Shown here: in pieces, positions 489-25,200 of the stretch
Layout of the letters: every line of letters starts with the position of its first letter
How positions within the stretch are numbered: the first letter of the stretch is position 1
From: a virus
Reading direction: 5' to 3' (one strand)
Length of the DNA stretch: 64,000 nt
IMG/VR virus record: IMGVR_UViG_3300029319_000012
Coordinates: 1 to 64,000 of that record
Position numbers and translations under genes: made by a program
The notes under the pieces: model-generated
The model's input: the letters and a program-made list of their open reading frames with translations, nothing else
Told to the model about the DNA's origin: nothing
The model's database searches: none

Positions 489-3400
489 ATGCGCATATCT
501 GATCAAGAACTTCAAAAAATTGTTTTAAAAGAATTTAAAAAGCTGACCTTAGTCGAGCAAAAACAACTTGACCCACAAATTGGTCAGGCAGCGGAGGATA
601 CCTTACAGTCTCTTGACAAATTAGCAGATGATCTTGAGCGCGCCTTGCAGGACCGGCTTGAATCAGAAGAAGTTATTGACTTTGTTGAGGGCTTTGAATT
701 AGTTTTAAGACTTGCTACAACAATTCCTAGATATCTCTCTAACTTTGTCCTTGGATTGTTAAAAGATTTAGGCGTTCCCGTAGTTGATGATATTCACGAT
801 GTTGCAAATGATCTAGCAAACGGTCTCATTGCCGATAAGCTTCTTATAAGAAAACTTTTAAAAAGCATTGAGTGTGTTATTTTATACGCTCAATACAAAT
901 ATGTTCTTTCTACCGGAGATCTTAAAAGAATTGCTGAAATCGCTGCGCAATTTCAACAAGCAACAGACAAGACTGACGCAATAGAACAAATGAAAAGATT
1001 AATTAATAGCAAAAGAAGAAGCGGTCTTAGAACAGCCTTCAATCGATTTGTCGTTAATCGGATGGGACCTTTTACTGTAAGGGAAGGCAAGTACGCGGTG
1101 GCGATTTCGATTACGAGTCGATATGCTCTTGGAATTAATGACTCAATGCTAGCAAGATTGGTTTCAATCTTTAACAGAGCGCGCGGCAGAGGAATAGCAA
1201 ATATTTCTTTGGCACAAACACAAAAGATCAGAAGTATTGTACAGCCGGGTCAAGGAGGCAAACTTGAAGAAATATTTGACATACTAGAAGAAATAGATGA
1301 AAGAGCCTACAAAACACGCGGACTGGCGACAGGACAGCGCATAGGTATAAAAGACATTAAAGATAAAGCCGAGTCTATAAAAAAAGAATTAGGAGATCCC
1401 AGATCTGATACCAGAGAAGCATCACTTCTAGACGACATAATTGGATCTGAAAATTTAGATGACGTGAAAAGAAATGTGCAAAAATACTCATTCCGAAATG
1501 CCAAGATCGTAAAGCGCATTAGTTTAAATGCGCCAGCTTACAATGCTGACAGCATATTACCGCCATTAACTCCAACACAGTCACCGCTAGAACAATATAA
1601 ATTTATTATAGTTGAAATACCACCAGAGCAGGGTGGCGCTGGCAAAAGAGTTGTTCTTCGTGTTACCGATTTTCGACAATCCGAAGCACTTGGTGTGGTT
1701 GGTGGTGCTTATTATGATGGCGCTCACTATAAATTGATGGATATGGATAATGTTGAACTTAGCAATCAATTAGAAAGATATATAGCAGAGAGAGCTAATG
1801 TGAGTGAGATAGACGCATCAAGCGTGAGAGAATTAAATGAAAGGTTTATAAACAACAGAACAATTGAAAAAGTTAATTTTTCAAGTGATTTTACATTTTC
1901 TCAAGAAGCAATAGATCAATTATACCTCAGCGTGACAGACAGGTTTGACCCTAACATTCAAGAAGTCATCATTGATGTAGAAAGCATAAAACAAGGAAGG
2001 CTTAATATAGCTGCAGATCAAGTTTTAAATTTAACAGATGAAAGAAGAGCTTTATTTAGTATGTTAAACTATGAATTTGCAGCTGCTGGCGCCATGGACC
2101 CTAGTTTTGAGCCAGAAAGGCAGTATTTTGGTTTTAATTTTGACCCTGAATCTGAAAATATTATAATAAACGATAGAAAACAAAGAATGCTTGATTTAGC
2201 CTTAGAGGAGCCTCGAAGGTCCGGACAAGGTAGAGAGAGGTTAAGCGCACAAGAACGGCAAAGGCGCGCACAAGAACGGCAAAGGCGCCAACAAGAAAAT
2301 AAAAATATTAAAGAGATAAACAAACAAATTGATGAACTTGTCAATGATAATAGGACGTCAAAAGACTCAACGTTTCTCGCGCGCGGATCTTCCAGAGAAG
2401 CGATATCATTTAAATTTGGTGATCTAAACGATCTAGCCATACAGTTGGAGCGCGTCAGCGAGGTTGATTCTGTTCACATGGATGAAGCAGGACGAGCTAT
2501 ATTTAATTTAGATTTTATTGATGAAACTGTGCGCGCCGCGATACCTGGAACAATTAAGCCAGGCAGTATAGCTAGCCTCATTGAGCTTAAGCGAGCTATA
2601 CTCAACATTAGAATTCTTCTTGATAAAGATGTAAAATTGTATAAAAAAGCTTTAGAAGATTTTCTTAGCAAAAACAAAGCTAAAGAACCTCCAGACCCAG
2701 CTAAAGTTGAAAAATTCATGAATAAGCAAGGTCTTCGCATGAATCCGCTAATTCAACAGATGGTATGCATGGAAATTTTAATAGAGCAGATAGATGAAGT
2801 TCAACTTAATGAAAAATTTGCAGTAAATATAGATAAAATGGTCGACAGGCTTAGATCAGCCTTAGAAACCTCTGAAATACAACGTGCGCTAGACGCCACC
2901 GAAGAAGGCCAGCGTCTTAGGATTGAGTTAGAAAGGAATTTTGAAAAACTAAAACAAGCAAGAGGTCCTAGGCAAGCTATGGACGCGCAGGTTAGCATAT
3001 TAAACTCAGTGATCAACAAGTCTAAAGTCTTGGCAGGAACAACTACTTTGCTGGTAGGAAAAGCACTGTTGATAAGTTTTGACGCCATAGCAATTGCTAG
3101 CGTACCATTTACTGCGTATGATGCATATACAACTCCAGGCACTCAAGGTGGAACGCTCGCCGCCGTCGGCGCCGGAATCATTTCAGCTGGCGCTCTTGCA
3201 ATCCCCTTTGCTCTTTATAAAGCAGCTGCAGTGGTAGGCGTCCCAGCTGGTATCGCTGTTGGCGGGACATTTATTGTTGGTGCTGTACTTGAGTTTATGG
3301 CTGAGAGCTATTTTTATAAAACGGGCTTAACTGGTAGAATTTCGCCTGAATCTTTCAACTGCAAATTTACAAAAACTCTTATGACTAGCGATGCAGGTGA

Positions 3401-4925
3401 AAAGCGCAAAATTAAATTAAGTAACGGAGAAGAAATAGAAGTTATTCAAGGTGCAGCGGCGCCAACTTGTTATGGCTTTATGAAAACTAGATCGCTCAGC
3501 GAAGCTGAGACTGAGCAAAAGTTGCAACAAAGCGATCTCGGCGAGCCTTTAGATTTTTATGTTTCAAGAGACTCTATGGGCAAAGTTGAATATGGTCAAG
3601 AAATTTTAAATCCTATACATCGTTTTATTTATAAAAGAATTAACCAAACATTGTATGAAGAAAATTTAAACCAAGAATATAAGGATGTATGGGAAGATTT
3701 TGATTTTCGAGTAATAGTTCAGCCTAATGATAGAGTTTCTTGGAAGAAAATGCTTTACTTTGATGAGCAAACAACTGATTTTGTAGCAAACGAAACCTGG
3801 CCAGGTTTATTTTATAATCATGTGTTTCAGCAGGGTGAGGAAAATAAACAGCCAATTATACGTAGAAAATCAACCTTGCTTTTACCAGGTAATCGCATTG
3901 GATGGCTAGACGCTGATGGCAATGGCTTTTTAGAATTAAATCCAAAAAGTGATTTTGTTATACAACTTAATACATTGTTGCAAAGAAGAGTTCAGCTAAA
4001 TAGTATGCGTACATTTAAAAATCCCTTTGTGGGATCAGCTACAGAAATTGCAAATAAATCTCAGGCTTTGATTAATCTTATGCAAGAGAAACAAGAAACG
4101 CTTGTAAAGAGTCTCATCGACCATTTTGAAGGACCAATTGCAAGAAGCGCAGAAGCTGGCTATTTACAAGCTTTGAAAGAACCCGTTCTTCTTCTTGGGG
4201 TGTCGGCAAAATATGTTTTTACAGAACTATACATGCGACAGGAATTACTAAAAGACTTAGATAAAATAAAAATTGATATACTATCAAACAATCAAGGCAT
4301 TGAAAAAGCTACAGATGAAAAATTAGATTTAATATTTGAAAGAGATTTAATTTTTACACACTGGTTAGGGTCTGGCGGGCGTGATAAATTAGGTGAAGGC
4401 GAAAAATCTTTAATGAAAGGCTATCTTAATGCATTGAAAAAAGTTGCAGATAAAATTTCTAGTTCGCAAGCAGGCGCAGTGACAGCAACAGGCGAGCCTT
4501 TTAAACAAGGTTCAGATGTTCAAGATGCCGTGACATCTGAATTAATTATCAGCGGGCTTCCTGATCTTCAAAATGCTTTAAGTGCGATTGTCAATGTATG
4601 GAATAACAAAATTTCTGTTAGGTCTAAAGGATCTAGCTATCTTGACGTTATAAGGCGAATACAAACGATGCTAACAAATAAGGGAGTGAAAATAAAACAG
4701 CAAAAGATAGCAAAAGATTTACTAATAGCTAAATTAAAAAGCACTAGCTTAATGATCCCAGATGAAGAGTTTATTGATATCATCAGAAGGCAACAATCCG
4801 AGCGCGGCGTTGAAAAAGCTAGGCGGGATGCTGATGTAAGACTGCAACAGAAGCGCGGTCCACGAAATCCAAAGGATGTATCGCCCATGGGCGCGGAAGC
4901 CGGCGGTGGTCCTCCTATACAATAA
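489..4925 (+). CDS. 1478-aa putative virion internal/ejection protein
   Basis: Long ORF with AGAGG SD; leader MRISDQELQKIVLKEF; coiled-coil stretches; long Gly/Ala hydrophobic region around aa 845-935. Confidence 0.6.
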   Translation: MRISDQELQKIVLKEFKKLTLVEQKQLDPQIGQAAEDTLQSLDKLADDLERALQDRLESEEVIDFVEGFELVLRLATTIPRYLSNFVLGLLKDLGVPVVDDIHDVANDLANGLIADKLLIRKLLKSIECVILYAQYKYVLSTGDLKRIAEIAAQFQQATDKTDAIEQMKRLINSKRRSGLRTAFNRFVVNRMGPFTVREGKYAVAISITSRYALGINDSMLARLVSIFNRARGRGIANISLAQTQKIRSIVQPGQGGKLEEIFDILEEIDERAYKTRGLATGQRIGIKDIKDKAESIKKELGDPRSDTREASLLDDIIGSENLDDVKRNVQKYSFRNAKIVKRISLNAPAYNADSILPPLTPTQSPLEQYKFIIVEIPPEQGGAGKRVVLRVTDFRQSEALGVVGGAYYDGAHYKLMDMDNVELSNQLERYIAERANVSEIDASSVRELNERFINNRTIEKVNFSSDFTFSQEAIDQLYLSVTDRFDPNIQEVIIDVESIKQGRLNIAADQVLNLTDERRALFSMLNYEFAAAGAMDPSFEPERQYFGFNFDPESENIIINDRKQRMLDLALEEPRRSGQGRERLSAQERQRRAQERQRRQQENKNIKEINKQIDELVNDNRTSKDSTFLARGSSREAISFKFGDLNDLAIQLERVSEVDSVHMDEAGRAIFNLDFIDETVRAAIPGTIKPGSIASLIELKRAILNIRILLDKDVKLYKKALEDFLSKNKAKEPPDPAKVEKFMNKQGLRMNPLIQQMVCMEILIEQIDEVQLNEKFAVNIDKMVDRLRSALETSEIQRALDATEEGQRLRIELERNFEKLKQARGPRQAMDAQVSILNSVINKSKVLAGTTTLLVGKALLISFDAIAIASVPFTAYDAYTTPGTQGGTLAAVGAGIISAGALAIPFALYKAAAVVGVPAGIAVGGTFIVGAVLEFMAESYFYKTGLTGRISPESFNCKFTKTLMTSDAGEKRKIKLSNGEEIEVIQGAAAPTCYGFMKTRSLSEAETEQKLQQSDLGEPLDFYVSRDSMGKVEYGQEILNPIHRFIYKRINQTLYEENLNQEYKDVWEDFDFRVIVQPNDRVSWKKMLYFDEQTTDFVANETWPGLFYNHVFQQGEENKQPIIRRKSTLLLPGNRIGWLDADGNGFLELNPKSDFVIQLNTLLQRRVQLNSMRTFKNPFVGSATEIANKSQALINLMQEKQETLVKSLIDHFEGPIARSAEAGYLQALKEPVLLLGVSAKYVFTELYMRQELLKDLDKIKIDILSNNQGIEKATDEKLDLIFERDLIFTHWLGSGGRDKLGEGEKSLMKGYLNALKKVADKISSSQAGAVTATGEPFKQGSDVQDAVTSELIISGLPDLQNALSAIVNVWNNKISVRSKGSSYLDVIRRIQTMLTNKGVKIKQQKIAKDLLIAKLKSTSLMIPDEEFIDIIRRQQSERGVEKARRDADVRLQQKRGPRNPKDVSPMGAEAGGGPPIQ
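2245..2286 (+). repeat. 21-bp tandem repeat x2 (AQERQRR)
   Basis: gcgcacaagaacggcaaaggc repeated exactly twice, in frame. Confidence 0.9.
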
Positions 4926-5279: not shown

Positions 5280-5288
5280 AACTATTTA
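5280..5288 (+). promoter_or_regulatory. Putative late-promoter motif AACTATTTA
   Basis: Recurring motif upstream of the ATG at 5306. Confidence 0.5.
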
Positions 5289-8397: not shown

Positions 8398-9714
8398 ATG
8401 AAAAAATTATTTGAAAACTGGCGTAATTTTATCAATGAGCAAGACCTTACTCAAACTACGGAGGCGCCTAGAGACGGCGAATTAGTTCCCTTTCGAATCC
8501 GTGGCAAGAAAAAATCTTATAAAATTTTTAAATCCAATATTGATGATAGTGATGATGATCTACGAGTCTTTCCAATAGTAGCAAAAGGAGAAGCTCCCGA
8601 TGGTGGAGACATATATTTTAGAAATAAAAAAGAGGAAGAAGCGTGGTTTAAGTCAGGCGAAGTTATTCTAGCTGATCCTGATAATAAACAATTTAAGATT
8701 ACAAATGTTGAAACTAGATTGAGCGCAAAAAAATTCGTTGAAATATATGAAAAGACTCAAGAAGAACTAAAGTCACCTAAGGGATCTTTTGTTGAGATGC
8801 CTGGAGTTATATCTTGCTTAGATGGAAATTGCTATGAAAAAATGCTAACTTTAGGACATGTTAGTATGAAAAAGAAAGATCTTTTAAGAAAAATCAATGA
8901 TCTTCCAAAGTATAAATTGAGATCTAGAGCCAGAAAAAGTACAAAATTAATTGTATTGCACATATCCGAAACAAGCCATCCCCGAGGAACGCTCGGCGCG
9001 TTAACAGGAAAAAAAGCAAGCACAAACTACGAAGTTACCGAAGATGGAATCATATATGAATATGTTAGCCCTTATTCAGCTACAAATCATGGCGCGCCAG
9101 TAAACAATATCTCAATAGGTGTTGATTTTACTGGCAGGAGAAACAAGATTGGTGATAGTAGAACAGAGTTTTATAATTATGCAGGTTATGGTGCTAGAGA
9201 TCAAGAACCATTTAGTGCGGATCAAACCGCGCAAGGTGTTGCTTTAGTGTCAAAACTATGCGAAATGTTTGGCTTGCCACAAATAGTAGCTCCATATGAT
9301 TTTCGTATAATTCTTGTTAAATGTATAAAACAGCTATTAAAAGATTTTGGCGCCAGCCTCGAATTAAGAAAATCATTTGCTGCAGAAGGAATTAAAAAAA
9401 GTATAGAACACCATAACTACTTTAAAGTCTCTGATATACTTGAGCAAATGAATATTGGTATAGTACCTCACAAGGTAATTAATCCTGGACATGGCTGCCC
9501 AGGTCCTGGTTTTCCTTATAGCAAGTTTGGTAATGTTGCCGATGAAGACTATATTTTAAATGAGCTGAGAAGCATTATTGAAAACAAATATGAAAATGAT
9601 ATAGCTAAATTAATGAGTGACTTCACAGACAGAACACAAGTTGCAATGGTGTATAGAAGAAATAAACAAGCTAAAAAGCTAGCTGCAGCTAACAAGCAAG
9701 GTAAAACAAAATGA
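8398..9714 (+). CDS. N-acetylmuramoyl-L-alanine amidase (Amidase_2) domain protein with N-terminal leader
   Basis: LIVLHISET, STNYEVTEDGIIYEYV, NHG...NNISIGVDF, VPH...CPG; starts MKKLFENWRNFINEQ. Confidence 0.75.
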   Translation: MKKLFENWRNFINEQDLTQTTEAPRDGELVPFRIRGKKKSYKIFKSNIDDSDDDLRVFPIVAKGEAPDGGDIYFRNKKEEEAWFKSGEVILADPDNKQFKITNVETRLSAKKFVEIYEKTQEELKSPKGSFVEMPGVISCLDGNCYEKMLTLGHVSMKKKDLLRKINDLPKYKLRSRARKSTKLIVLHISETSHPRGTLGALTGKKASTNYEVTEDGIIYEYVSPYSATNHGAPVNNISIGVDFTGRRNKIGDSRTEFYNYAGYGARDQEPFSADQTAQGVALVSKLCEMFGLPQIVAPYDFRIILVKCIKQLLKDFGASLELRKSFAAEGIKKSIEHHNYFKVSDILEQMNIGIVPHKVINPGHGCPGPGFPYSKFGNVADEDYILNELRSIIENKYENDIAKLMSDFTDRTQVAMVYRRNKQAKKLAAANKQGKTK

Positions 9715-11270
9715 ATCCAATTATAGAAAAATGGAAACAATTTCTAAAAGAACAAGAAGAACAAGAGCCAGCACCAGTTTTAGATTTATCTAAAGAACTT
9801 GACTCTGGATTCTGTGATTTTAATCCTCTGATTAATCAATACGCTCAGTCGAGCCCAGATGGACTTGCAGAGATGCTTATATTTGTTGTAGCTACTCAGC
9901 AAATGCGCTGGTATGATGTTGTGCCCAAGTTTCCTTTGTTAATGCAACATCTTAGAGAAAAAGATATTTTGCTTGATCCTGAAGACGCATTTGTAAATGA
10001 TCAAGGCAAAACAATTTATAATATTCCAAAATCAATTGCGCAACTTACACTTGGACCTCGTAAAAATGCTATTCAATATATGTGGCAAAACAGAGAAAGT
10101 ATTTATTCTACTTTAAGACCAATGTTTGCAACTTATAATAAAGGTGGCGAGGATAGCTTAGCAAAAGAAGAAGCTCTTTTTAATATTTACTTAGAGTTTA
10201 TTAAGCTTCCAGGCTTGGGGCTTCCTAAGGCTGCTTTTGCTGCGCAGCTTATTGTTGGTCGTCTTGGCTGTATTGATTCGATTAACTTAAACTTATATAA
10301 AGGCTTGGACCCTGAGGGGCAGCTTATAACTTATGATAAAACCGGTCGTCCTTCGTTTAAAACTCCAGGCAAAACTAAAAAGACAGGTATCGTACAGATT
10401 ACGAAAGGCGGTGTTAAATTAGCGCAGAAGTATGTGCAATTTTTAAAGCATATCGCAGAAATGACAGGCACCACCGAAGCTAGCGTATCAAAACAGCTTT
10501 GGAACTCGTGGGTTGAGTTGGTCGCTCTTAAAATTAATAAGAAAGATGATATTACAGTTATCATGCCTGGTGGCAAAGAATACACTGTGCCAAATGACTA
10601 TTCTAAAAACATTTCAAAAGCTGATGTTAATCCTTCAGCTGCTTTCCGTAAAAAGTATATTGGTCGGATTACCGGCAAAGATATATCTCGACAGCACGAT
10701 CCAAGAAAGATGTTTGAGGGCGCAAAGAAATGGGACAGCTATGTTAAGGGCTTGATCAACGAAGCTTTGCCATATGGTGGCTATGAACCTGCTGCTATTG
10801 GTGGTGTCTCAAATCAAGGCACAACAATTCAACCACACGATACAAATGTGCAGACAGGAGTGGAGAAAGATACTTCAAAATCAATAAAAGCAGTAATGCA
10901 TCAAAATGGAAAAGTTCTTTTGCTTAAATGCAATGAGGATAAGCGAGGCTGGGATTTGCCAGGCGGTCACATTAAAGAGGATGAGAATCCACTGCAGGCG
11001 CTGCGTAGAGAGGTCTTTGAAGAAACAGGTTTACAGATTATCGACCCTAAAATAATACATGGCTATCAGCATGGTAAAAAAATGTTTGCAGAGGGCGGCT
11101 TTGGAGCCGGCGAGGTTATGCTGAGCAAAGAACACGACAGTCACGCATTCATGTCGATCAAAGAGATTAAAAAACAACGCATATCTGAAGCTTTTTTGAA
11201 GGCTATCGAGTTAGCCTTAGGTGAGAGCGCAGAAACTAGGAAGGTGAAAATTAAGATTAAAATGAGGTAA
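9711..11270 (+). CDS. HhH DNA-glycosylase-like domain fused to Nudix hydrolase
   Basis: HhH motif KLPGLGLPKAAF followed by CID; Nudix box GGHIKEDENPLQALRREVFEETGL. Confidence 0.7.
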   Translation: MNPIIEKWKQFLKEQEEQEPAPVLDLSKELDSGFCDFNPLINQYAQSSPDGLAEMLIFVVATQQMRWYDVVPKFPLLMQHLREKDILLDPEDAFVNDQGKTIYNIPKSIAQLTLGPRKNAIQYMWQNRESIYSTLRPMFATYNKGGEDSLAKEEALFNIYLEFIKLPGLGLPKAAFAAQLIVGRLGCIDSINLNLYKGLDPEGQLITYDKTGRPSFKTPGKTKKTGIVQITKGGVKLAQKYVQFLKHIAEMTGTTEASVSKQLWNSWVELVALKINKKDDITVIMPGGKEYTVPNDYSKNISKADVNPSAAFRKKYIGRITGKDISRQHDPRKMFEGAKKWDSYVKGLINEALPYGGYEPAAIGGVSNQGTTIQPHDTNVQTGVEKDTSKSIKAVMHQNGKVLLLKCNEDKRGWDLPGGHIKEDENPLQALRREVFEETGLQIIDPKIIHGYQHGKKMFAEGGFGAGEVMLSKEHDSHAFMSIKEIKKQRISEAFLKAIELALGESAETRKVKIKIKMR

Positions 11271-11273
11271 AAA

Positions 11274-12107
11274 ATGAGTTGGTTAACAAACAGATATAAT
11301 AAAAAGTCGGCAAAGCGCTATGGATGGCATCCATCATGGTTTCGTTCAGAGTTGACTGAGTTTGATGAAAACCTCGTTCAAGCCATTAAAAGATTTCAAG
11401 ACGATCATGATCTAAGTGTTGATGGTAAAGTTGGTCCAAATACATTTCGACGCCTATTGGCTGAACGAGACTTAGAAGAAGCAGATAATTTTATTTTGTG
11501 CGACGGTCAACAAGTTGATATTGATTGGGATGTTAAAATTGACCTATTGCCTAAAAACTGCTATCGCACAAATAGAAACAGAAGAAAGCCCAACATGATT
11601 GTTACTCATTGGGATGCCACAACCTCTGCAGAGAGATGCAAAAGAGTTTTGCAAGCTCGTAATATTTCATCACATTTTTGTATTGATAACGATGGTGTAA
11701 TTTATCAGTATGTCGATACAAACCATACAGCTTGGCATGCCGGCAAAGTCAATCGCTATTCAGTTGGCATTGACTTTACAAACGCATATTACTTAAAATA
11801 TTCTGACTGGTATGAGAAAAAGGGATTCGGTGAAAGACCAATCTGCAAAGACAGCAAGGTGCATGGCAGAAGACTTAAGCCGCACTTGGGTTATTATCCA
11901 ATTCAAATTAGAGCATATAAAGAACTGGTCAAGACTTTGTGTGAGCATTACAATATTAATTATGCTACACCGCCAATCGATGCAGTTTGGGATAAAGCAG
12001 CAACTGGCAGGTACAATGGTATAGTTTCCCACTATCACCTAACAAGAAATAAGATTGACTGCGCAGGGTTGAACTTGCAAGAAATTGTTAAGCAGCTGCA
12101 GAAATAA
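11274..12107 (+). CDS. Endolysin: peptidoglycan-binding domain + Amidase_2
   Basis: AIKRFQDDHDLSVDGKVGPNT (PG_binding_1); IVTHWD, SSHFCIDNDG, AWHAG, SHYHL...KIDC. Confidence 0.85.
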   Translation: MSWLTNRYNKKSAKRYGWHPSWFRSELTEFDENLVQAIKRFQDDHDLSVDGKVGPNTFRRLLAERDLEEADNFILCDGQQVDIDWDVKIDLLPKNCYRTNRNRRKPNMIVTHWDATTSAERCKRVLQARNISSHFCIDNDGVIYQYVDTNHTAWHAGKVNRYSVGIDFTNAYYLKYSDWYEKKGFGERPICKDSKVHGRRLKPHLGYYPIQIRAYKELVKTLCEHYNINYATPPIDAVWDKAATGRYNGIVSHYHLTRNKIDCAGLNLQEIVKQLQK

Positions 12108-12335: not shown

Positions 12336-12551
12336 ATGTGCGAAAATAAATTTTTTAAAAAGCTTTTTATTTTTTCTTCGATATTTTTAATGCTCAGTTT
12401 GGTCGCCAACTCTGTTATTGTCTACGCAGCTTTTTCTACTGATCGAGAAAAAAGCACAGCGCAAGTAATCCAGAATCAACAAGAAAAAATTATTCATAAA
12501 CTAAAAAAGATGGATAAGAAAGTAAAAAAGCTAAGAGCTAAAAAGAAATGA
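12336..12551 (+). CDS. Single-TM membrane protein with coiled-coil tail (possible lysis accessory)
   Basis: GGGAG SD; one TM segment then basic coiled coil; close to the endolysin. Confidence 0.55.
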   Translation: MCENKFFKKLFIFSSIFLMLSLVANSVIVYAAFSTDREKSTAQVIQNQQEKIIHKLKKMDKKVKKLRAKKK

Positions 12552-13731: not shown

Positions 13732-16290
13732 ATGTCTAGTATTACTGCTACTCAGTTAGGTAAATTCCTAACTTTACAAAACAATTCAGGCTCGGCTGAT
13801 AGTACCGCGCCTGCAGGTGGTGTTGTTTTGTTCTCTTCTGGTTCCAACGCGGGCACCGGTTTAGATGCAAAGCTTTACCTACAAAAAGAAGGATCTGCTG
13901 ACGTTCACGAGGTCGGCGCGGATCTTAAGATTGCTGGTGATTCCGGCTCAAGCACTGTTTCTTTAGGTGCCGGTCAGACACTTACAGTCGCTGGTGCTGC
14001 TGCTAACGGTATTGACACTAGTGTTTCTGGGCAAACAGTCACAGTTGCATTGGATCTTAACGAGCTAGCTGCAAAAGCTAGTCCTGTTGGCGCTGACGCG
14101 CTTGGCTTAGTTGACAGCGCAGACGGCAACGCTACAAAGAAAGTTACAATCTCAAATCTTGCTGGTCTGATGGCTGGCACTGTAACCAGCACTGGTCTGG
14201 CTAACAGCTCTGGTGTTTTATCGCTTGATATTCAAAACATGACCGCAGCGGCTACTGTTGATGATGGCGATCTTGTTGTTATCGACGATGGCGCAGGTGG
14301 CACACTCAGAAAAATGACTCGTGCAAACTTTATTGAGTCTGCTGCTCTTGATAACATCGACATTGATGGTGGTGCTATTGATGGCGCTGCGATTGGCGCT
14401 AACGATCCATCTACTATTCAGGCAACAACTATTTCTGGTTCTTCTACTCTTAATGTTGTAGGCGTTTCTAGCTTTGGTCCAGCTGCTCAAACAACTATTT
14501 CTGCAGCTGGTGTTGTTTCCGGCTCTGGAGCATCGACACTTCACCAATTGACTGCTGATCGTGGTACTTTTACAGCACTTGTTGCTGACACATTGGATGT
14601 TAACACAATCAACAGCATAACATCGACTGTAAATGACCTTGAGGTCTCGGACAGAAGAATCGTTGCTGCCCTCGATGCAACATCTCTGCAGGCTGATGGC
14701 GGTGGTCTCCGAGTTGGTGGTGATGCATCCACCGCTGGTCACATGAGTATTCTCTACGATCACAGCAATACTGCTATGGACTTAAACGTTGGTGGATCGA
14801 CCATTGCGCTGCTCGATGCAAATGGTCTTGATGTAACTGGCGCCTTATCGGGCTCTGGTGATTCAACAATCCATAAAGTCACAATGGATCAATTGGTTGC
14901 TGCAACAGCTGATATCAATGGCGGCTCTATCGATGGAGCAACAATTGGTGCTGCCAGCCAATCTTCTGTCAAAGCAACAACTATTTCTGGATCAAGCACA
15001 CTTGGAGTTGCTGGTGTTGCTACTTTTGGTAGCGAGCGCCTAACAATTTCTGCTGTTGGTGTTCTTTCCGGTTCTGCTACAGCAACATTGCACAACGCTA
15101 CTTTAGACCAAGTTACAGTTGGATCTGCTGACATTAACGGCGGCAATATCGATGGCACTGCAATTGGTGCTACTAGCCAATCTTCTGTTAAAGCAACCAC
15201 ACTTTCTGGTTCGGGTGCTCTTTCTGTTGTAGGTGCTTCTAGTTTTGGTCCTGGCGCGCAGGCAGTGATTACCGCAGCAGGTGCCTTGACAGCCGCTTCT
15301 GCTACTCTTAATGGAAATCTTTCCGGCTCAGGCACTCTTATTATTGAAGGTGCTTCCAGCTTTGGTGCAGGTGCTCAGGCAACTATTTCTGCAGTCGGCG
15401 CGGCGGTTCTTGCTTCTGCAAAAGTTAGCGATCTTACAGACGGTCGTGTTGTTCTTGCTGGCACAAGTGGCGAGCTTGAGGACAGTGGTAACCTCACTTT
15501 TGATGGCTCTACATTAACTATTACTGGTGCTGTTTCAGGTTCAGGTAATATCAGTAGTGCAGCTGCTTTAAACGCAGCTAAAGGAGACTTTGGAGTTATC
15601 GGATCTGGTGCCAACCAAGGTGCTGCAGGCTCAAAAGTTGGATTTTTTGCTGGTAACCAAGGATCAGGCTTGGCTGCTCAAGGGTACTCCGCAGGCAACG
15701 GCGGCGTATCTGTTCTTGGCTCAAGTGGTAACATTCAAGCCGGCGGTAGCGGACTTTTTGAGAAAGGTCTCAATATTGGTCTTAATACTGCTAACCGCAG
15801 TGCGAACGCCGATGTTGTTTTCCACACTCAAACTGAAGACAACTTCTTTAAGCTTGATGTTGATCAAGATGATATTCGGATTGATGGTGCTAATATGCAA
15901 ATTGGCTTTGACAAAGATCCAGAGTCAGGTTACGCAATTGATGTTTCTGATTCTAGAACTCACAATAAAGTTCGAGCTGATGCTTTTGTCACTTACTCGG
16001 ATAGAAACCTCAAGACAGACATCACCCCAATGACTGATGCTCTTGATCGAGTTATGGCGCTTGAGCCAGTTAGATACGAAATGAAATCTGCCCCAGGCAA
16101 AGCTGATTTCGGATTTATCGCTCAGGACCTTGCAAAGGTTGCTCCAGAGGTTTGTGGATTTGACTCTAAAACTGGTGAAGGCAATGCTATCGACTACGGT
16201 CGTATGTCTGCGCTTCTCGCTGGTGCTGTCAAGTCGCAGCAGCTTCAAATTGAAGAGCTTAAGACAATTATCGCAAAATTACAAAAGTAA
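13732..16290 (+). CDS. Long tail fibre protein with Peptidase_S74 chaperone
   Basis: GGAGG SD; Gly/Ala/Ser/Thr-rich with internal repeats; C-terminal YSDRNLKTDI...GFIAQDL...IDYGRMSALL. Confidence 0.85.
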   Translation: MSSITATQLGKFLTLQNNSGSADSTAPAGGVVLFSSGSNAGTGLDAKLYLQKEGSADVHEVGADLKIAGDSGSSTVSLGAGQTLTVAGAAANGIDTSVSGQTVTVALDLNELAAKASPVGADALGLVDSADGNATKKVTISNLAGLMAGTVTSTGLANSSGVLSLDIQNMTAAATVDDGDLVVIDDGAGGTLRKMTRANFIESAALDNIDIDGGAIDGAAIGANDPSTIQATTISGSSTLNVVGVSSFGPAAQTTISAAGVVSGSGASTLHQLTADRGTFTALVADTLDVNTINSITSTVNDLEVSDRRIVAALDATSLQADGGGLRVGGDASTAGHMSILYDHSNTAMDLNVGGSTIALLDANGLDVTGALSGSGDSTIHKVTMDQLVAATADINGGSIDGATIGAASQSSVKATTISGSSTLGVAGVATFGSERLTISAVGVLSGSATATLHNATLDQVTVGSADINGGNIDGTAIGATSQSSVKATTLSGSGALSVVGASSFGPGAQAVITAAGALTAASATLNGNLSGSGTLIIEGASSFGAGAQATISAVGAAVLASAKVSDLTDGRVVLAGTSGELEDSGNLTFDGSTLTITGAVSGSGNISSAAALNAAKGDFGVIGSGANQGAAGSKVGFFAGNQGSGLAAQGYSAGNGGVSVLGSSGNIQAGGSGLFEKGLNIGLNTANRSANADVVFHTQTEDNFFKLDVDQDDIRIDGANMQIGFDKDPESGYAIDVSDSRTHNKVRADAFVTYSDRNLKTDITPMTDALDRVMALEPVRYEMKSAPGKADFGFIAQDLAKVAPEVCGFDSKTGEGNAIDYGRMSALLAGAVKSQQLQIEELKTIIAKLQK

Positions 16291-16762: not shown

Positions 16763-16794
16763 TTGTACCAAACTATTTACCTAGAGGTAATTTT

Positions 16795-18853: not shown

Positions 18854-21628
18854 ATGGGCGGCGCTGCAGGACATATGGCACATCCATTTGATTGCCGCGA
18901 GGTAAGAAATGGTCAGGATTTAATTAATTTTTATGTAAAAACGGTTAATGCTATACCTCTTTACGAAGAAGAACCAAAAGAAAGCTCTGTTTCTGTTAAA
19001 TTAGACGGTGTTAATGCATCTTTTCGTCTTCAGAAGGCAAATAATCCTGCCGGTTTTATGTTTGTGATAGACAGAGGTGGAAAAACACCTGGAGCACGTA
19101 CAAAATATGATTTTGAAGGTGTAACTCCAGATAATGTGGTAAAAAGATTTGGAGGCAATAAAGATCATGGCATGGTTCAGGTTGTTAACCACATGTCAAA
19201 GATTCTAAATCATAATTTGATGGAATTAAAACCATATGTTGAGGCTTTGGGTATTTTTGAGCGCATGGGTCCTGATGGAGTCTTTTTTGATGCTGAATAT
19301 TATGCAAATGCAGACGATCCAAAAGGTCCAGACGCAGAAAGAGGCTATAAGCCAGTAAAAAACAGTGTTAATTATAATCAAAATTATATTGCCATTCATA
19401 GGCTTTCAGAATTTTATACTGAGACAAAAGAGACAAAAACAGGAAAAACAAGATCAAGGCGCCTTACAAGAGGTTTTTATTGGGAAACAGTTGCAGAAAT
19501 TAATGATCTCCTTAGGCAAAAAGATCAATTATTAGCCCAACGCCAAGACACTGTAGAGATTGACCAACTTATTGCTGCAAAAAACAACGAGCTAAAGGCA
19601 AAGAAGCAAGAACATCAAGAAGTGCTTAATAACCTTGCAAAAGCTATACAAACATATGCGACTGAATTAGACATGCCTTTTAATATATACACGAAGATTG
19701 GTGTTCGCTTTAAAGAGGGTTTGACCAGAGAAATAGTGTTAAAAAGGATTGAGGAGGCTCTCAATATAAGAGTTCCTTACAGCTATAAAAAAGTTAATGA
19801 GCAAATGAGTATTGGACCTGTTAAGATTAATGAACAAACAGGCGAGCTTGAAGGCAGAACTTTAAAAGAACTTCTTTTATCGGTTAAAACAAACCCTGCA
19901 CATGTTGCTTATTATCCAGATACTCCAGGATTTACCAAAGATGGTGAGTCAGTAAAAGGCAAAATACGTACCAAAGATGACTATATAGAAGACCCAAAAC
20001 AAAGCGCGTTTGCTCTTAAGATGTATCAAGATATTATGGTCACGGGGCATGAAACTGGTATTGGTCCATTTGATATAGGGAATAGCCCTCGTGATGCAGA
20101 GGCGATCAACAGTGCAGTCATTCTTTGGCATGCCGTGCGTCATATTGGTAAAGCCTTAAAGAAATCTATTACAACCGATGTAGATTTAGGCGTTGAAGGT
20201 GGAGATGAAAAACATGAAGGAATTGTTATACAATCGACAGAAATATGTGATGGCATTGCATTTAAATTTACTGGAGAATTTATTGTAGATAACAGATCAA
20301 GTGGTTTTGGTGTTGCCCCAAAAGGCAAAGATATACCTTCCGATTCGGCTGAGGCTTTATTTGAAACTAAGTTTAAATATGGTGAACTACTAGAAAGTTT
20401 TACAGTTGATACTCAAATTGTTGCAGAGCAAAAAGAAAGATATGCTATCATGATACCTGGCGGATTTAAGCCACCGACTGGTGGTCATTATAAAATGATT
20501 AAGCATTATGAAAAACAATCAGATGTTGAAAAAGTTTTTGTTGTAACTGGGTACAAATCACGTGGTGGAGTTACTTTGCAGCAAAGCAAACAAATATTTG
20601 AAATATATGGTGGGTTTTCTGATAAGGTTGTTTTTCTTACCAGCCGCGATGCATCAATAACATCATTTGGTGAGTGCTACGAACTAATAAAAGACCCGCA
20701 GTTTGTTGATCAATACTCACATTTAACTTTTTCAATTGGTGCATCCGACAAAGATGACGATGAAAAAAGAATCAGAGGTTTTCAAAGATACTTTGAAAAC
20801 AACAAAGGTCTAACCACAGCTAATATTGACTCATACCCTGCAGCGCCAGCATACGAAGTCAATGGTAAGCCAGCTTCAGCTTCACGCATGAGAAAAGCTT
20901 ATGATGATGGCAACTGGGAAGAGTTCAAGCGGATGCTTCCAGATGATAATTTTTATGATGATGTTGTGCAAGTGCTTAATAAACAAACAAATACAATTGA
21001 GCTTGAGGAGGGCGCTGAAAGCAAAGATTTTTTTACGATGAGCTACCTATTTTCTTTGGTTGACGAAGTTTTGCTTGAGAGAAAAAGCATGAACGACAAA
21101 GTAAGCGATAAAATAAGCTACCTGATGAAAAAAGAGAAAAAACCACAAGATCAGGCGGTTGCAATTGCACTTAGTATGAGAGATCGTGGAGAATTAGCTG
21201 AAAAAGAAGAAAAACAATGCGCGCTTAATGAAGAGGGTAAAGATTGTCCTGTGCACGGTAAAAAAGCATGCCCAACTCAAGAACATATCGCTGTGCAAGA
21301 ATTAGCTGTAAATGAGCAAGAGGAAGAGGTTGATACGGAGACCAGAGTACGACAATTAGCTGCTCCATTAATCGCTAGTCTTGGCTTGCCAGAAGACCAA
21401 TCAGAAAGAGCCTATGACGAACTAGTTAATTCTATAGTAGATCAAGTTACTGCACTTGAGACACAGAAACAAAAAGACCAAGAGGAAGTAGAAGCTAGGT
21501 TGGCAGCTGGGGATACAGCCGGATTAGCACAAGAGGTCTCTGGCGTTGGGTCTATAGCAGGATATTCAGTACCAAAAAAACATAGAAGGGGAAAAAAGCA
21601 TGAGCAAGGAATTATTAGAGGAGCGTAA
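18854..21628 (+). CDS. ATP-dependent ligase-fold domain fused to HxGH (cytidylyltransferase/NMNAT-like) nucleotidyltransferase plus small modules
   Basis: SVKLDGVN (KxDG), FFDAEYY, EGIVI, FKFTG; then PGGFKPPTGGH and SASRMRK. Confidence 0.7.
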   Translation: MGGAAGHMAHPFDCREVRNGQDLINFYVKTVNAIPLYEEEPKESSVSVKLDGVNASFRLQKANNPAGFMFVIDRGGKTPGARTKYDFEGVTPDNVVKRFGGNKDHGMVQVVNHMSKILNHNLMELKPYVEALGIFERMGPDGVFFDAEYYANADDPKGPDAERGYKPVKNSVNYNQNYIAIHRLSEFYTETKETKTGKTRSRRLTRGFYWETVAEINDLLRQKDQLLAQRQDTVEIDQLIAAKNNELKAKKQEHQEVLNNLAKAIQTYATELDMPFNIYTKIGVRFKEGLTREIVLKRIEEALNIRVPYSYKKVNEQMSIGPVKINEQTGELEGRTLKELLLSVKTNPAHVAYYPDTPGFTKDGESVKGKIRTKDDYIEDPKQSAFALKMYQDIMVTGHETGIGPFDIGNSPRDAEAINSAVILWHAVRHIGKALKKSITTDVDLGVEGGDEKHEGIVIQSTEICDGIAFKFTGEFIVDNRSSGFGVAPKGKDIPSDSAEALFETKFKYGELLESFTVDTQIVAEQKERYAIMIPGGFKPPTGGHYKMIKHYEKQSDVEKVFVVTGYKSRGGVTLQQSKQIFEIYGGFSDKVVFLTSRDASITSFGECYELIKDPQFVDQYSHLTFSIGASDKDDDEKRIRGFQRYFENNKGLTTANIDSYPAAPAYEVNGKPASASRMRKAYDDGNWEEFKRMLPDDNFYDDVVQVLNKQTNTIELEEGAESKDFFTMSYLFSLVDEVLLERKSMNDKVSDKISYLMKKEKKPQDQAVAIALSMRDRGELAEKEEKQCALNEEGKDCPVHGKKACPTQEHIAVQELAVNEQEEEVDTETRVRQLAAPLIASLGLPEDQSERAYDELVNSIVDQVTALETQKQKDQEEVEARLAAGDTAGLAQEVSGVGSIAGYSVPKKHRRGKKHEQGIIRGA

Positions 21629-22457
21629 GCTCAGATCTTTAATTAGAAAAGCAATAAAACTAAGAAAATCGCAACTGACTGAAAACAACTTACTTAAATC
21701 TGATGAAGAAAAGCTAAGGCAAGTTATTAGACGAATGCTAGCTGAGGGTAGTGATATTGATGCAGATACAGAGCCAGCCCCTTACGAATCAACTGCCTTA
21801 TCGGCTCTTGCTGATGCATTTAACCAAATATTACCCGTTTTAAAAACTGGTTTGCGAAAATTAAGAAAACCAGAAGAAAGACGTTCATATAGAGCACACA
21901 TCTTGCAAAAGTTTAAATCAATGTTTGATAATTTTGAAGGATTGGATGCTCAACAAGCGATGGGTGAAGGTGACTTGACAGAACAAGAAAAAGACGTCAA
22001 AATTAAAATTGACAATCGTCCCGATGACGCAATGATTGTTCCAGATATTGAGAAAGAACGCTTTAAGCCTGAAGAAGAGCCAGAGCTTGAGCCTGATGAT
22101 GCTGATGTTGATCAACTAGCTATCTCTACTGAAGACCCTACCGGAGCTAGGTTTGCTTTTAGCACAATCAACAATTCAAACATTGAAAAACTGCTTGGTG
22201 ACAAGAGAAAGCTTCTGCCCTCTGATGAGTACAGAGAAGAGTATAAAAACTATGCTTTATATAACGTTGATCTTTGGCTTTTAACTTACGAAAAGGAATT
22301 AGCAGACGAGCTTGGTACAGAGCCGGCATTTACTGATGTTGTAACTCCTAAGCCAGAGGGCGCACAGGTTTCAGCCAGAGCAGCTGCTCAGGATACTCCT
22401 GATTTGCCTGATATTGACGATATAGAAATTCCAGAGCCAGAACAACAGGCTGTCTAA
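21600..22457 (+). CDS. Acidic hypothetical protein with leader-like N-terminus
   Basis: EERKLRSLIRKAI / EEKLRQVIRRMLAE duplicated motif; acidic C-terminus. Confidence 0.65.
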   Translation: MSKELLEERKLRSLIRKAIKLRKSQLTENNLLKSDEEKLRQVIRRMLAEGSDIDADTEPAPYESTALSALADAFNQILPVLKTGLRKLRKPEERRSYRAHILQKFKSMFDNFEGLDAQQAMGEGDLTEQEKDVKIKIDNRPDDAMIVPDIEKERFKPEEEPELEPDDADVDQLAISTEDPTGARFAFSTINNSNIEKLLGDKRKLLPSDEYREEYKNYALYNVDLWLLTYEKELADELGTEPAFTDVVTPKPEGAQVSARAAAQDTPDLPDIDDIEIPEPEQQAV

Positions 22458-22819
22458 TGTGGGAAAGTAAAAGAAGTAGGTTTAAAAGACCAGACCGTGA
22501 TTTCTATAGTATTTCTAATAAATTAAAATCTCAAAATAAGATTAATGAAAATTTTGAGATTATGCTGTCTTCTTTAACCTTGGAAGAGATTATCGCACTC
22601 AGGCTTGAGTTAGCTGCTAAGGTAGTTAATTTTAAGCTATATGGGCTAAATCTTTGGCAAAACTTACCAGAATTAGTTAAAGATGCAGTGCTTAAGTATG
22701 TCTACTCAGCTGCGAGAACAAAAGGCGAGATGGCTGCTTTTTTAGGATTAGATCGATCAACATTAAAAAAGCTCTTAAAAAAACATAATACGTCTAGTTA
22801 TTTTGACAAAAGCCAGTAA
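22457..22819 (+). CDS. Fis-type helix-turn-helix protein
   Basis: C-terminal RTKGEMAAFLGLDRSTLKKLLKKHN. Confidence 0.65.
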   Translation: MWESKRSRFKRPDRDFYSISNKLKSQNKINENFEIMLSSLTLEEIIALRLELAAKVVNFKLYGLNLWQNLPELVKDAVLKYVYSAARTKGEMAAFLGLDRSTLKKLLKKHNTSSYFDKSQ

Positions 22820-22861
22820 ATATTATTGAGTTAGTTAGTTGGCTTTTTAACTATTTAAAGT

Positions 22862-23467
22862 ATGACCATGCAAATAACAAAAGAAATTCTGCAAGAGCTT
22901 ATTAAGGAGGAGGTTGATAACTCCTTAGAAGAAAAACGCAAGCGAAGTAGAAAAAGAACTAAGAAGCGTAAAAAGTCAAAAGTTAAAAAACGTAAGTCTT
23001 CAAAAGTTAAAAAACGTAAGTCTTCAAAAGTTAAAAAACGTAAGTCTTCTGGCAAAAAAGATGCATGTTATTACAAAGTTAAATCCAGGTATAGCGTTTG
23101 GCCATCTGCATATGCTTCTGGTGCCCTTGTTAGATGTCGAAAAGTAGGCGCTAAGAACTGGGGTAATAAATCAAAGAAAAACGAAAATTTGCAAGAAGAG
23201 CTAGTGTCGTCTGAAATTCAAGCACTACATAGCAAAATGAAAGATCGCTATGAAGAGCTTAAAGCAAAAAAAGAAAAAAGTCGAGAAGAAGAGCGCAATG
23301 AGCTTAGAATGAAAAAAGCCTTAGATGATCCTGGCTTAAAGCAAGCATTGGCTGACGATAGAAAAAGACAAAGCTTGCTGGACTTGTTTAATTTCAATCT
23401 TGACGAAATCATCTCAGAAGTGATTGATGAAGTGTTGGCTGAAAAAAAAAATCTAAAGAACGGCTAA
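22862..23467 (+). CDS. Very basic (protamine/histone-like) leader-bearing protein with Cys module
   Basis: MQITKEILQELIKEE leader; K/R/S repeats; DACYYKVKSRYSVWPSAYASGALVRCRK module. Confidence 0.75.
   Translation: MTMQITKEILQELIKEEVDNSLEEKRKRSRKRTKKRKKSKVKKRKSSKVKKRKSSKVKKRKSSGKKDACYYKVKSRYSVWPSAYASGALVRCRKVGAKNWGNKSKKNENLQEELVSSEIQALHSKMKDRYEELKAKKEKSREEERNELRMKKALDDPGLKQALADDRKRQSLLDLFNFNLDEIISEVIDEVLAEKKNLKNG
22976..23047 (+). repeat. 24-bp tandem repeat x3 (SKVKKRKS)
   Basis: tcaaaagttaaaaaacgtaagtct x3 perfect copies. Confidence 0.95.
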
Positions 23468-23802
23468 AGAATCTTTCTGAGGATCCAAAAGTGGGCACAG
23501 GCAAGAAGCCAAAAGGCTCTGGTCGTCGTTTATATACAGATGAAGATCCTAGTGATACTGTAAGTGTAAAATTTACATCAGCGAGTGCTGTGCAAGATAC
23601 TCTTGCAAAAAAGTCTTTTAAATCAAAGTCTCACAAAAGACAATCACAAATTATAAATCTAATTAAACAAAGAGCTTGTGTTGCAGCAGGACGAGCTAAA
23701 GATCCAGAAAAAAAGAAAAAATTAAGATCGGCATGTGAATATGCAAAAAAACGAGCTGAAGCTTCAAAACGCAAAACTAAAAGAATGAGAAAAAAGAAAT
23801 GA
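23452..23802 (+). CDS. Basic protein module, probably the -1-frame continuation of 22862
   Basis: Frame open from the A10 run: SKERLKNLSEDPKVGTGKKPKGSGRRLYTDEDP...; the annotated GTG start at 23491 is weak. Confidence 0.6.
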   Translation, partial: SKERLKNLSEDPKVGTGKKPKGSGRRLYTDEDPSDTVSVKFTSASAVQDTLAKKSFKSKSHKRQSQIINLIKQRACVAAGRAKDPEKKKKLRSACEYAKKRAEASKRKTKRMRKKK

Positions 23803-24326
23803 TTACGCTTGATGAATTTATAGAAATTGTTCGCGAAGAGTTGGATGGTGTGTTATCCGAAAAATGTGAAAAAGGCTATAAAACTCATCCAAAGCGCAAA
23901 ACTAAAATTATGTTTGGTCAACGATATAGAAATTGTGTTAAAGCCGAACACCGGCAAATTGATTTAACAGAAGAAGAACTAGAAGAAATAAGACAGCTGC
24001 TTGAATCTGATAAAGATCTTGAAGAGAGCCTTAAAGATTGGTTTGAAAAGTCTAGAGGGACAACTAAATCAGGAAAAAAAGTAGGAGGCTGGGTTCAAGT
24101 TGGTGGTAAGTATGATGGTGCACCCTGTGCAAAGCAACCAGGGCAGAAAACAAAACCAAAATGTGTTTCTTCTGCAAAAAGAAGAAGCATGTCAAAGAAA
24201 GAGAGAGAATCAGCTGCTAGAAGAAAAAGAAAAAAGGATTCGAATCCCGATAGAAAAGGCAAGCCGATAAACGTCTCCACTGATCCACAAAGAAAACGAA
24301 AGAAAAAGAAAAAAAAGAAGGGATAG
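23799..24326 (+). CDS. Basic leader-bearing protein with two Cys-pair mini-modules
   Basis: MITLDEFIEIVREELD; CEKGYK...RNCVK; SLKDWF...GWVQ...PCAKQ...PKCV; poly-Lys tail. Confidence 0.75.
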   Translation: MITLDEFIEIVREELDGVLSEKCEKGYKTHPKRKTKIMFGQRYRNCVKAEHRQIDLTEEELEEIRQLLESDKDLEESLKDWFEKSRGTTKSGKKVGGWVQVGGKYDGAPCAKQPGQKTKPKCVSSAKRRSMSKKERESAARRKRKKDSNPDRKGKPINVSTDPQRKRKKKKKKKG

Positions 24327-24330
24327 CAAA

Positions 24331-24519
24331 ATGTGCCTGATATGTGTTGAGCTAGCAAAAAATACACTAACTTCAATTGAAGCTAAAAGAAATTTTGCTG
24401 AAATGAGATCTCAAATTGACGAGCAGCACCAATCAGAAGTATTACAACGCATACAAATGAAAGAGGACGAAGAAAACATTATTGATGTTTATTTAAGGTA
24501 CGAAGCAGATACAGATTAA
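24331..24519 (+). CDS. Small CxxC protein
   Basis: MCLICVEL, 62 aa, tight operonic spacing. Confidence 0.6.
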   Translation: MCLICVELAKNTLTSIEAKRNFAEMRSQIDEQHQSEVLQRIQMKEDEENIIDVYLRYEADTD

Positions 24520-24740
24520 TGAAGATTACAAAGTCACAATTAAAACAAATAATAAAAGAGGAAATTAGCCTAGTTGATACTGTTGATGATTATCACATGA
24601 TGTTATTGAAAACAGCAGAAAGATATGCAAAATTAGCAGAGGCTTATCCAGATAAAGATTTTATGCTAACTCAAATACGTAATCTGCATGCTATGTTTGC
24701 AAATATGGAAAAAAGATTTTTAACAAACAAAGGGCTTTAA
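24519..24740 (+). CDS. Small leader-bearing protein
   Basis: MKITKSQLKQIIKEEI leader. Confidence 0.7.
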   Translation: MKITKSQLKQIIKEEISLVDTVDDYHMMLLKTAERYAKLAEAYPDKDFMLTQIRNLHAMFANMEKRFLTNKGL

Positions 24741-24741
24741 A

Positions 24742-25200
24742 ATGAAAATTACAGAACGAGAACTAAAACAAGTAATAAAAGAAGAAATTGATATTCTCTT
24801 AAAAGAAGAAGACTTGCTTGAGCACCTTCAACATGGAGCTGTTTTAGAAGATGGCACTCCTGTTTGTGAAGCCTGCTTGTTTGAAACTATCTCTCCAGCT
24901 CTTTGTGAATGTCCTGATCTTATACCAGAGGCAAAGTATCGCGGTCGTAAAGTAAAGCTAAACAAAATTATGCGTGGCGATGTCAAGAAATTTAAAGTCT
25001 TTGTTAAAGATCCTAAAACTGGTAAAATTAAAAAAGTTAATTTTGGTCATGGTGGTAAAAGTGCAAAACGCAAAGGTGAAAAAACTATGAGAATTCGTAA
25101 GTCAAACCCTAAAGCACGAAAAAACTTTAGAGCTAGACATAATTGCAAGAATCCAGGTCCAAAAACCAAAGCAAGATACTGGGCATGTAGAACTTGGTAA
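24742..25200 (+). CDS. Leader-bearing basic protein, DUF6321-like C-terminal domain
   Basis: MKITERELKQVIKEEI; CEAC; KKVNFG...RKNFRARHNC...KARYWAC. Confidence 0.7.
   Translation: MKITERELKQVIKEEIDILLKEEDLLEHLQHGAVLEDGTPVCEACLFETISPALCECPDLIPEAKYRGRKVKLNKIMRGDVKKFKVFVKDPKTGKIKKVNFGHGGKSAKRKGEKTMRIRKSNPKARKNFRARHNCKNPGPKTKARYWACRTW

Follow-up and report, generated by a model that had tools for sequence, protein, structure and literature searches.

Two N-terminal leaders shared by unrelated proteins of an uncultured T4-like marine phage: probable capsid-targeting propeptides

What could make a peptidoglycan amidase, a DNA-glycosylase-like domain fused to a NUDIX domain and several small basic proteins begin with related short peptides? 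The question is raised by a 64,000-nucleotide stretch of virus DNA (IMG/VR record IMGVR_UViG_3300029319_000012, positions 1 to 64,000; hereafter the window), which forms the first 64 kb of a single virus contig of 106,405 bp with a CheckV completeness of 59%. The contig derives from an uncultured T4-like marine phage and carries nearly all of its genes on the plus strand; the record is a fragment, since the major capsid protein gene (105281) runs past the contig end. An earlier sequence-only reading of the window had proposed that the common leaders constitute a capsid-targeting tag of the T4 type. Each computational prediction of this proposal that was tried came out as expected, while packaging, cleavage and injection we still infer. 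As judged from sequence, the case for reading both leaders as T4-like propeptides that target proteins to the capsid is well supported but circumstantial, and we assign this reading a probability of about 0.7.

Ten leader-bearing proteins are encoded on the contig. Six carry a type A leader (M-K-I-T-K-x-Q-L-K-Q-I-I-K-E-E) and four a type B leader (M-K-K-L-F-E-N-W-R-x-[FY]-[ILV]-x-E). The genes concerned, with neighbours to which the text returns, are the following.

489..4925, plus strand: 1478-aa protein, function unassigned; its type A leader is divergent (residues 1-15, L-K-E at 13-15).
8398..9714, plus strand: 438-aa protein with a type B leader (codons 1-14, 8398-8439) and an Amidase_2 domain at residues 181-294.
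9711..11270, plus strand: variant type B leader (codons 1-14, 9711-9752), HhH DNA-glycosylase-like domain, leader-like joint and NUDIX domain.
11274..12107, plus strand: leaderless endolysin with PG_binding_1 and Amidase_2 domains.
21600..22457, plus strand: 285-aa acidic protein, conserved in the clade, with a loose internal type-A-like stretch at residues 32-47; a non-member.
22862..23467, plus strand: 201-aa, very basic protein (pI 10.1), phrog_727, with a type A leader at 22868-22909.
23491..23802, plus strand: 103-aa basic protein, no leader.
23799..24326, plus strand: 175-aa basic protein, phrog_727, with a type-A-like leader of 13 residues (V-R-E) and a second L-S-E at 19-21.
24519..24740, plus strand: 73-aa protein with a canonical type A leader (32 bits).
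24742..25200, plus strand: 152-aa, Cys-rich, basic protein, phrog_7595, with a canonical type A leader and a second L-K-E at 20-22.
25202..25615, plus strand: 137-aa protein whose first 14 residues are degenerate and lack Glu.
Contig beyond the window: type B leaders on 93378 and 93941, type A leader on 94844.
Contig 102866: small head-core gene directly after the protease gene, with a type-A-like helix.

The type A genes of the window thus comprise 22868 (the open reading frame, ORF, at 22862 opens M-T-M, and the leader proper begins at 22868), 24519 and 24742, the shorter form on 23799 and the divergent form on 489; type B is found there on 8398 and, as a variant, on 9711. Seven of the ten leader proteins of the contig are basic. 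The Glu of the terminal [ILV]-x-E is residue 14 in eight of the ten leaders; the remaining two have it at 13 or 15.

A position-specific profile built from the leaders was run over 94 ORFs. Members score 21-39 bits, every one of them at the N-terminus, and the best internal sites reach 17.5 bits (type A) and 14.1 bits (type B). When each member is left out of its own profile, seven still score 18-29 bits (the amidase protein 8398 drops from 37 to 28) and 9711 scores 10.4; the weak ones are 23799 at 3.2 bits and 489, which has 21 bits inside the profile and -0.9 bits outside it. The observation of related leaders on unrelated proteins is borne out, in that every start named in the sequence-only reading translates as described and the profile gap is clear. 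Of the at least eight members it had counted, seven starts in the window stand, and four leader genes outside the window have been added; the looser leader claimed for 21600 has been dropped, because the match is loose and internal (residues 32-47) and the gene is conserved in the clade and is not variable cargo. No leader was found on the PhoH gene, glycan genes, tail fibres or endolysin of the contig, in agreement with what had been said of the first two. The endolysin at 11274 serves as an internal control, as it belongs to the same catalytic family as 8398 and lacks the tag. A Sec/Tat or lipoprotein signal peptide is excluded: the leaders are charged amphipathic helices devoid of a hydrophobic run, and true lipoprotein-type starts occur on other genes of the window, e.g., 5645 and 7777.

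As for the attached domains, the amidase that had been proposed is confirmed on 8398, and the proposed glycosylase/NUDIX fusion of 9711 stands. The NUDIX domain of the latter is matched with E=1.9e-13; for the glycosylase part an atlas search leads to Ogg-HhH, and HhH-GPD glycosylases top the list in a fold search (Z 6-8.2, residues 32-192, with a low-confidence model). The structure model was built from 5 sequences, has a mean pLDDT of 45 and is usable only for about residues 40-180; it draws the leader as a helix (residues 2-16) followed by coil, with low confidence, and is not relied on here. When cultured relatives were sought, no phage homologues of 9711 beyond the NUDIX part were found. 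The 1478-aa protein at 489 has no matches in Pfam or PHROG. A membrane-inserting cargo, which had also been announced, could not be recognized: no clear case was found, and only the 1478-aa protein contains a hydrophobic stretch, a single one at about residue 915.

To what extent are the leaders a property of more than one contig? Degenerate DNA patterns of both leaders were used to draw samples of at least about 120 IMG/VR contigs each, and these patterns define the samples; the counts in this paragraph and the next are among the matches listed. For both leaders together there are more than 300 matches, about 90% of which have a Met at the exact register. In type B the Met lies exactly 4 residues upstream in 136/155, the off-register matches being mostly due to GTG/TTG starts or to a Met a few residues further upstream; in type A it lies at -2 in 147/158, and 7 more have a GTG/TTG start. 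Multiple leader copies per contig are frequent. Reverse-pattern controls gave 0 matches in ten genomes, and the true matches are all on the coding strand. Between random pairs of leaders, codons differ at 46% of the positions with the same residue; codon choice is free, and selection therefore acts on the peptide and not on the DNA. The sequence-only reading had advised scans of the genome and of relatives: the profile places the leaders of this genome at N-termini only, and the DNA patterns find them common across the clade. Complete leader-bearing records measure 174-204 kb and encode portals 57-68% identical to that of the contig. No match to the type A pattern occurs in T4, cyanophage P-SSM2 or Mel-JY01, and no leaders of either kind were found in the first 50 kb of Mel-JY01. 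On the evidence of these genomes, both leaders are a hallmark of one uncultured T4-like clade with genomes of 175-205 kb. Once the leaders are stripped off, the 254 distinct cargo sequences group into 190 unrelated BLAST clusters, of which 156 have a single member; the median size is 90 aa behind type A and 203 aa behind type B. Type B cargo domains include guanylate kinase, NUDIX, cytidylyltransferase, HAD/NT5C, protein kinase and 2H phosphoesterase.

To test how the leader ends, the type B scan was rerun with any residue allowed at 12-14. Position 12 holds L, I, V or M in 133/148 matches, and residue 14 is Glu in 121/148 and Asp in 2; the exceptions at residue 14 mostly have an insertion of 1 to 3 residues ahead of the same motif. 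An [LIVM]-x-E ending at residues 14-17 is present in 131/146, with [LIVM]-x-D in 3, while equal-sized downstream control windows contain 5-9 of the former and 9-15 of the latter. In T4, gp21 cleaves after L/I-x-E, and exchange of Glu for Asp in the T4 tag stops processing (PMC9026906). Going by its residues, the leader ending fits the specificity of gp21, with Glu and almost never Asp. Conservation ends sharply at Glu 14 in type B and extends to about residue 22 in type A, acidic or flexible sequence following in both cases; 57% of the type A matches have a second [LIVM]-x-E at residue 21/22. The capsid proteins of the clade, including the partial one on this contig, contain E-L-L-[KR]-E|A-S about 20 residues before a conserved F-P-I-V-R-R, a site that matches the position of the T4 gp23 maturation cut.

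Leaders can also be seen to change partners. The leader in front of the basic module of 22862 is of type A here, but in a complete relative (G003), where the module is 67% identical, it is of type B. The gene at 25202, with its degenerate start, has an 81%-identical orthologue in G003 that carries a type-B-like leader (Phe for Trp), and the same cargo domain stands behind type B leaders in several IMG/VR contigs. A single G003 protein corresponds to 24519 and 24742, with the 24519 module upstream and a complete type A leader internal at residues 215-236; the homologues of 23491 and 23799 are likewise joined in G003 via an internal leader-like joint. In 9711 the leader-like joint between the glycosylase-like and NUDIX domains is degenerate; in homologues that lack NUDIX, the sequence stops with a leader-like L-L-F-E-N-W remnant, located where the NUDIX domain is attached in 9711, and free-standing leader-NUDIX proteins exist in IMG/VR. 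From these comparisons the leader is portable, apparently moved between cargo, lost, or retained as an internal joint of fused genes.

Of the machinery that such a tag would need, protease and portal are identified on the contig. It encodes a T4-type head module with a large terminase, a portal of the T4 gp20 type (Pfam 8e-79) and a gp21-type prohead protease of the Peptidase_S77 family (Pfam 1e-30; phrog_207 5e-59). Alignment of the latter with T4 gp21 (PDB 5JBL) indicates that the catalytic His (E-L-D-H-P) and Ser (S-S-R-G) are retained. The closest cultured portals are those of Microcystis phage Mel-JY01 (44% identity) and Flavobacterium phage immuto (41%). The genes after that of the protease encode a small core protein, a homologue of ribosomal protein S21, a scaffold-like protein and the partial major capsid protein. 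Candidate equivalents of the T4 core and scaffold proteins (gp22/gp67/gp68) are genes 100499, 102866 and 104093, which stand at the expected positions and are richest in [LIV]-x-E but match no family model. The density of [LIV]-x-E peaks in the scaffold-like protein, the two core candidates and the protease; the leader proteins 22862, 23799 and 24742 are equally dense, 24742 having the top value in the genome (5.9 per 100 aa). Three of the head-module genes have the following coordinates.

Contig 102244-102864: gp21-type prohead protease.

Contig 103259-103492: ribosomal protein S21 homologue, 77 aa, between the protease and scaffold-like genes (phrog_21469, 1.3e-6).
Contig 105281-106405, outside the window: major capsid protein, starting at 105281 and open at the contig end, first ~375 residues present.

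An S21 homologue is annotated at the equivalent position in Mel-JY01. The final 1.1 kb of the contig, which holds the major capsid protein gene, has a G+C content of 49% as compared with 37% contig-wide.

The PF03420 protease is present in 9/9 leader-bearing records that are at least 96% complete. One record rated 100% complete (G066) lacks the protease; it was set aside as a counterexample, its match being non-canonical, not N-terminal and in a 62-aa ORF, and taken as due to chance. Among type A fragments that are 17-45% complete, 12/16 hold the protease gene where 4.5 are expected (P=1e-4), from which a tendency of type A genes to lie close to the head module follows. In G003 the main leader cluster (3.7-18.8 kb) adjoins the endolysin gene (18804), a layout similar to that of the window.

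A link in expression is hinted at by an upstream motif. The promoter-like sequence ACTATTTA lies 24 nt upstream of 489 and 12 nt upstream of 22862. The corresponding motif ACTA[AT]TTA is strand-specific, with 31 plus-strand and 0 minus-strand sites in G003 (15 expected from shuffles) and 13 versus 3 on the contig. It sits 9-56 nt upstream of structural genes, among them those for the scaffold and the baseplate wedge, and of three leader genes (489, 22862 and 93378).

Window 465-472, 5281-5288, 16772-16779 and 22850-22857: ACTA[AT]TTA sites.
Contig 85231, 93366 and 104074: further ACTA[AT]TTA sites.

The sites listed precede gene starts, that of the scaffold-like gene included, by 12-27 nt. We regard the motif as a candidate late promoter of the clade; it is suggestive, no more, of a shared late expression of leader and structural genes. 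The T4 late promoter TATAAATA was considered as well and rejected, since it occurs 8 times on the plus strand and 10 times on the minus strand and never near leader starts.

How would the leaders act? As a short amphipathic N-terminal helix, the leader would dock its cargo on the scaffolding core while the prohead is being built. The gp21-type protease would then cut after the Glu of [ILV]-x-E, at residue 14 in both types, and many type A leaders would receive a second cut at residue 21/22. The freed cargo would stay in the head and exit with the DNA at infection.

A strict Glu-specific ending fits cleavage and is silent on packaging. The leader could in principle be a protease-removable propeptide that determines when the cargo is active and not where it is: the prohead protease or some other Glu-specific protease would activate or destroy the cargo, in the cytoplasm or at the prohead, and the cargo would remain outside the virion. 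We think this improbable for the leaders as a whole; a cleavable regulatory propeptide, with no packaging involved, is possible mainly for type B, whose cargo consists of enzymes of the nucleotide-metabolism type encoded by genes unlinked to the head genes. It fares badly with the location of T4-family prohead proteases, which act inside the prohead core (PMC9026906). Moreover, 13 conserved residues before the cut, which include aromatic and hydrophobic positions as in the T4 tag, far exceed what a cleavage site needs, and physical linkage to the head module is seen for the type A genes.

The leader might instead be a recognition tag for another shared partner, such as a modifying enzyme (e.g., a radical SAM protein), a chaperone or a multi-enzyme complex. 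A radical-SAM gene is indeed present in the window (39663-40517), yet its homologue is absent from the 9 complete leader-bearing genomes, and the Radical_SAM family (PF04055) occurs in only 3/9 of them, as compared with 9/9 for the protease; on these grounds a tag recognized by radical SAM was rejected. Recognition by any such partner would also leave the strict Glu ending, with Asp almost never, unexplained, and we consider it quite unlikely.

Least probable is an absence of any shared function, with generic helices derived from duplicated gene starts or a DNA-level recombination cassette: short helical motifs do recur by chance (the large terminase N-terminus has a loosely similar stretch of 10 bits) and conserved gene starts could aid the exchange of cassettes, an idea raised for the internal-protein locus of T-even phages, but members are separated from background by a clear score gap, the more than 300 occurrences share one register, reverse patterns give no match in the 10 genomes, and both the DNA cassette and the chance helix are excluded because codons are free, with selection on the peptide, the register is fixed and Glu is enriched over Asp in a position-specific manner.

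Several points weigh against capsid targeting itself. The clade has no cultured member, and packaging and cleavage rest on inference. The likeness to the T4 tag is one of pattern only (M-K ... F-I-x-E, as compared with 8398), with homology not demonstrable. The [ILV]-x-E motif is short and frequent in helices. To our knowledge the gp21-type protease is universal in T4-like phages, and the co-occurrence of leaders and protease is for this reason necessary but not discriminating. Type B fragments (17-45% complete) hold the protease gene in 4/24 cases where 8.2 are expected; type B genes are therefore not linked to the head module. Much of the type B cargo looks like ordinary nucleotide enzymes (guanylate kinase, HAD/NT5C, cytidylyltransferase, NUDIX), which could act in the cytoplasm. 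Finally, the cargo is mostly acidic across the clade (median pI ~5), unlike the basic internal proteins of T4.

The capsid-targeting interpretation can be carried one step further, to a scheme that we offer as tentative and think doubtful as a whole: two address codes, together with protease-cut joints, would pre-load the capsid with a large and fast-changing enzyme toolkit. Type A would be a 22-residue, double-cut helix, mostly on small proteins whose genes are head-linked; the core protein whose gene comes after that of the protease bears a helix like it. Type B would be a 14-residue Trp tag that recalls the K-W...L-L-E of the capsid-protein propeptide and is mostly found on enzymes, namely DNA glycosylase-NUDIX proteins, amidase, kinases, nucleotidases, nucleotidyltransferases and 2H phosphoesterases. 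Different core partners might dock the two codes, which might set different copy numbers or orders of release; the payload would provide an immediate counter-defence and repair kit on entry.

Some features of the neighbourhood deserve mention in their own right. In T4, ipII, ipIII, e (lysozyme) and nudE adjoin at 65.4-67.5 kb; here the leader-amidase, the leader-glycosylase-NUDIX and the endolysin adjoin (8398-12107), a likeness that may be a coincidence. The phrog_727 modules (window 23052-24275) have 73-78% DNA identity to a gene of many cyanomyoviruses. In P-SSM2 this gene is gp114, located between the tail-sheath stabiliser and gp16, and the modules form one protein there; a leader was sought on gp114 and is absent. 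The DNA identity suggests that the modules may have been exchanged between the clade and cyanophages. The endolysin gene is followed by tail-fibre genes, and the other long ORFs of the window are listed with them.

12548-13585: second fibre with an S74 domain.
13732-16290: tail fibre, 852 aa, with an S74 chaperone domain; G+C 47% versus ~36% in the flanks.
18854-21628: 924-aa protein, with 21600 as the next gene.
30839-43765: long run of ORFs, labelled glycan genes in the sequence-only reading, which includes the radical-SAM gene.
51033-62489: one ORF of 3818 aa (3684 aa in G003), upstream of baseplate-wedge-like genes.

The G+C contrast suggests that the fibre at 13732-16290 is a recent acquisition. 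The clade and Mel-JY01 both keep the 924-aa protein, whose annotation in Mel-JY01 is cytidylyltransferase-like; it has a G-H-M-x-H-P-F-D motif at its start and weak matches to cytidyltransferase PHROGs.

If the leaders do target the capsid, they would give a sequence-only readout of the injected proteome for ocean phages of a large and abundant group that has no cultured member, and any ORF that opens with either of them would be a candidate virion-delivered effector. The cargo list, with its DNA glycosylase-NUDIX, peptidoglycan amidase, protein and nucleotide kinases, nucleotidases, RNA-repair-type phosphoesterases and many small unannotated proteins, would then be a rich source of candidate functions in host takeover during the first minute and in anti-defence. 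The mechanism, so far described for three or four proteins of T4, would extend to hundreds of families, two parallel tags and fusion joints, and new natural packaging tags would become available for protein delivery by phage capsids.

The paradigm for such a system is that of the T-even phages, whose internal proteins are diverse and have nothing but a capsid-targeting sequence in common (PMC3012670, PMC9026906). The T4 tag and propeptide sequences used for comparison were taken from the T4 genome. As in the leaders described here, the T4 capsid-targeting sequence (on IPI, IPII, IPIII and the Alt propeptide, removed by gp21) is a short N-terminal tag on otherwise unrelated proteins and ends in hydrophobic-x-Glu; a protease of the gp21 family and a gp20-type portal are encoded both in T4 and on the contig, which also has a motif-rich scaffold-like protein, and the cargo varies between relatives in both cases. 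There are differences as well. Leader length is 14 residues in type B and ~22 in type A, as against 10 in the T4 tag; two leader classes coexist per genome here, unlike in T4, and tagged genes number ~10-19 per genome as compared with 3-4. Again unlike in T4, the cargo of the clade comprises hundreds of families, many of them enzymes and mostly acidic, and the leaders double as internal joints of fused cargo.

Short resemblances to structural and core proteins of T4 can also be found. T4 gp24 has a 10-residue N-terminal stretch ending in L-R-E, gp67 contains D-L-I-K-E-E, identical to the type A end, and L-L-N-K-W-K-P-L-L-E of gp23 recalls type B (E-K-W-K-Q-F-L-K-E in 9711). None of these is a portable tag, and the resemblances could be convergent; they are a lead only. 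In the giant phages phiKZ, 201phi2-1 and SPN3US, many head-internal proteins are cut after Glu by diverged homologues of gp21. The cleavage motif there is (S/A/G)-x-E, and the propeptides are long and have no shared short tag, whereas the phage described here is T4-like, with a genome of 175-205 kb and a hydrophobic P3. The propeptides of giant phages can carry redundant cleavage sites (PMC9026906), which resemble the double site of type A leaders. A literature search on the type B core motif and on tags like the capsid-targeting sequence in metagenomic T4-like phages returned nothing relevant, and no paper describing either leader was found. The principle is thus established for T-even phages; what differs here is the use of two longer, distinct leaders per genome, of enzyme cargo and of leaders as fusion joints, with 10 or more genes tagged in each genome and cargo families that number hundreds over the clade.

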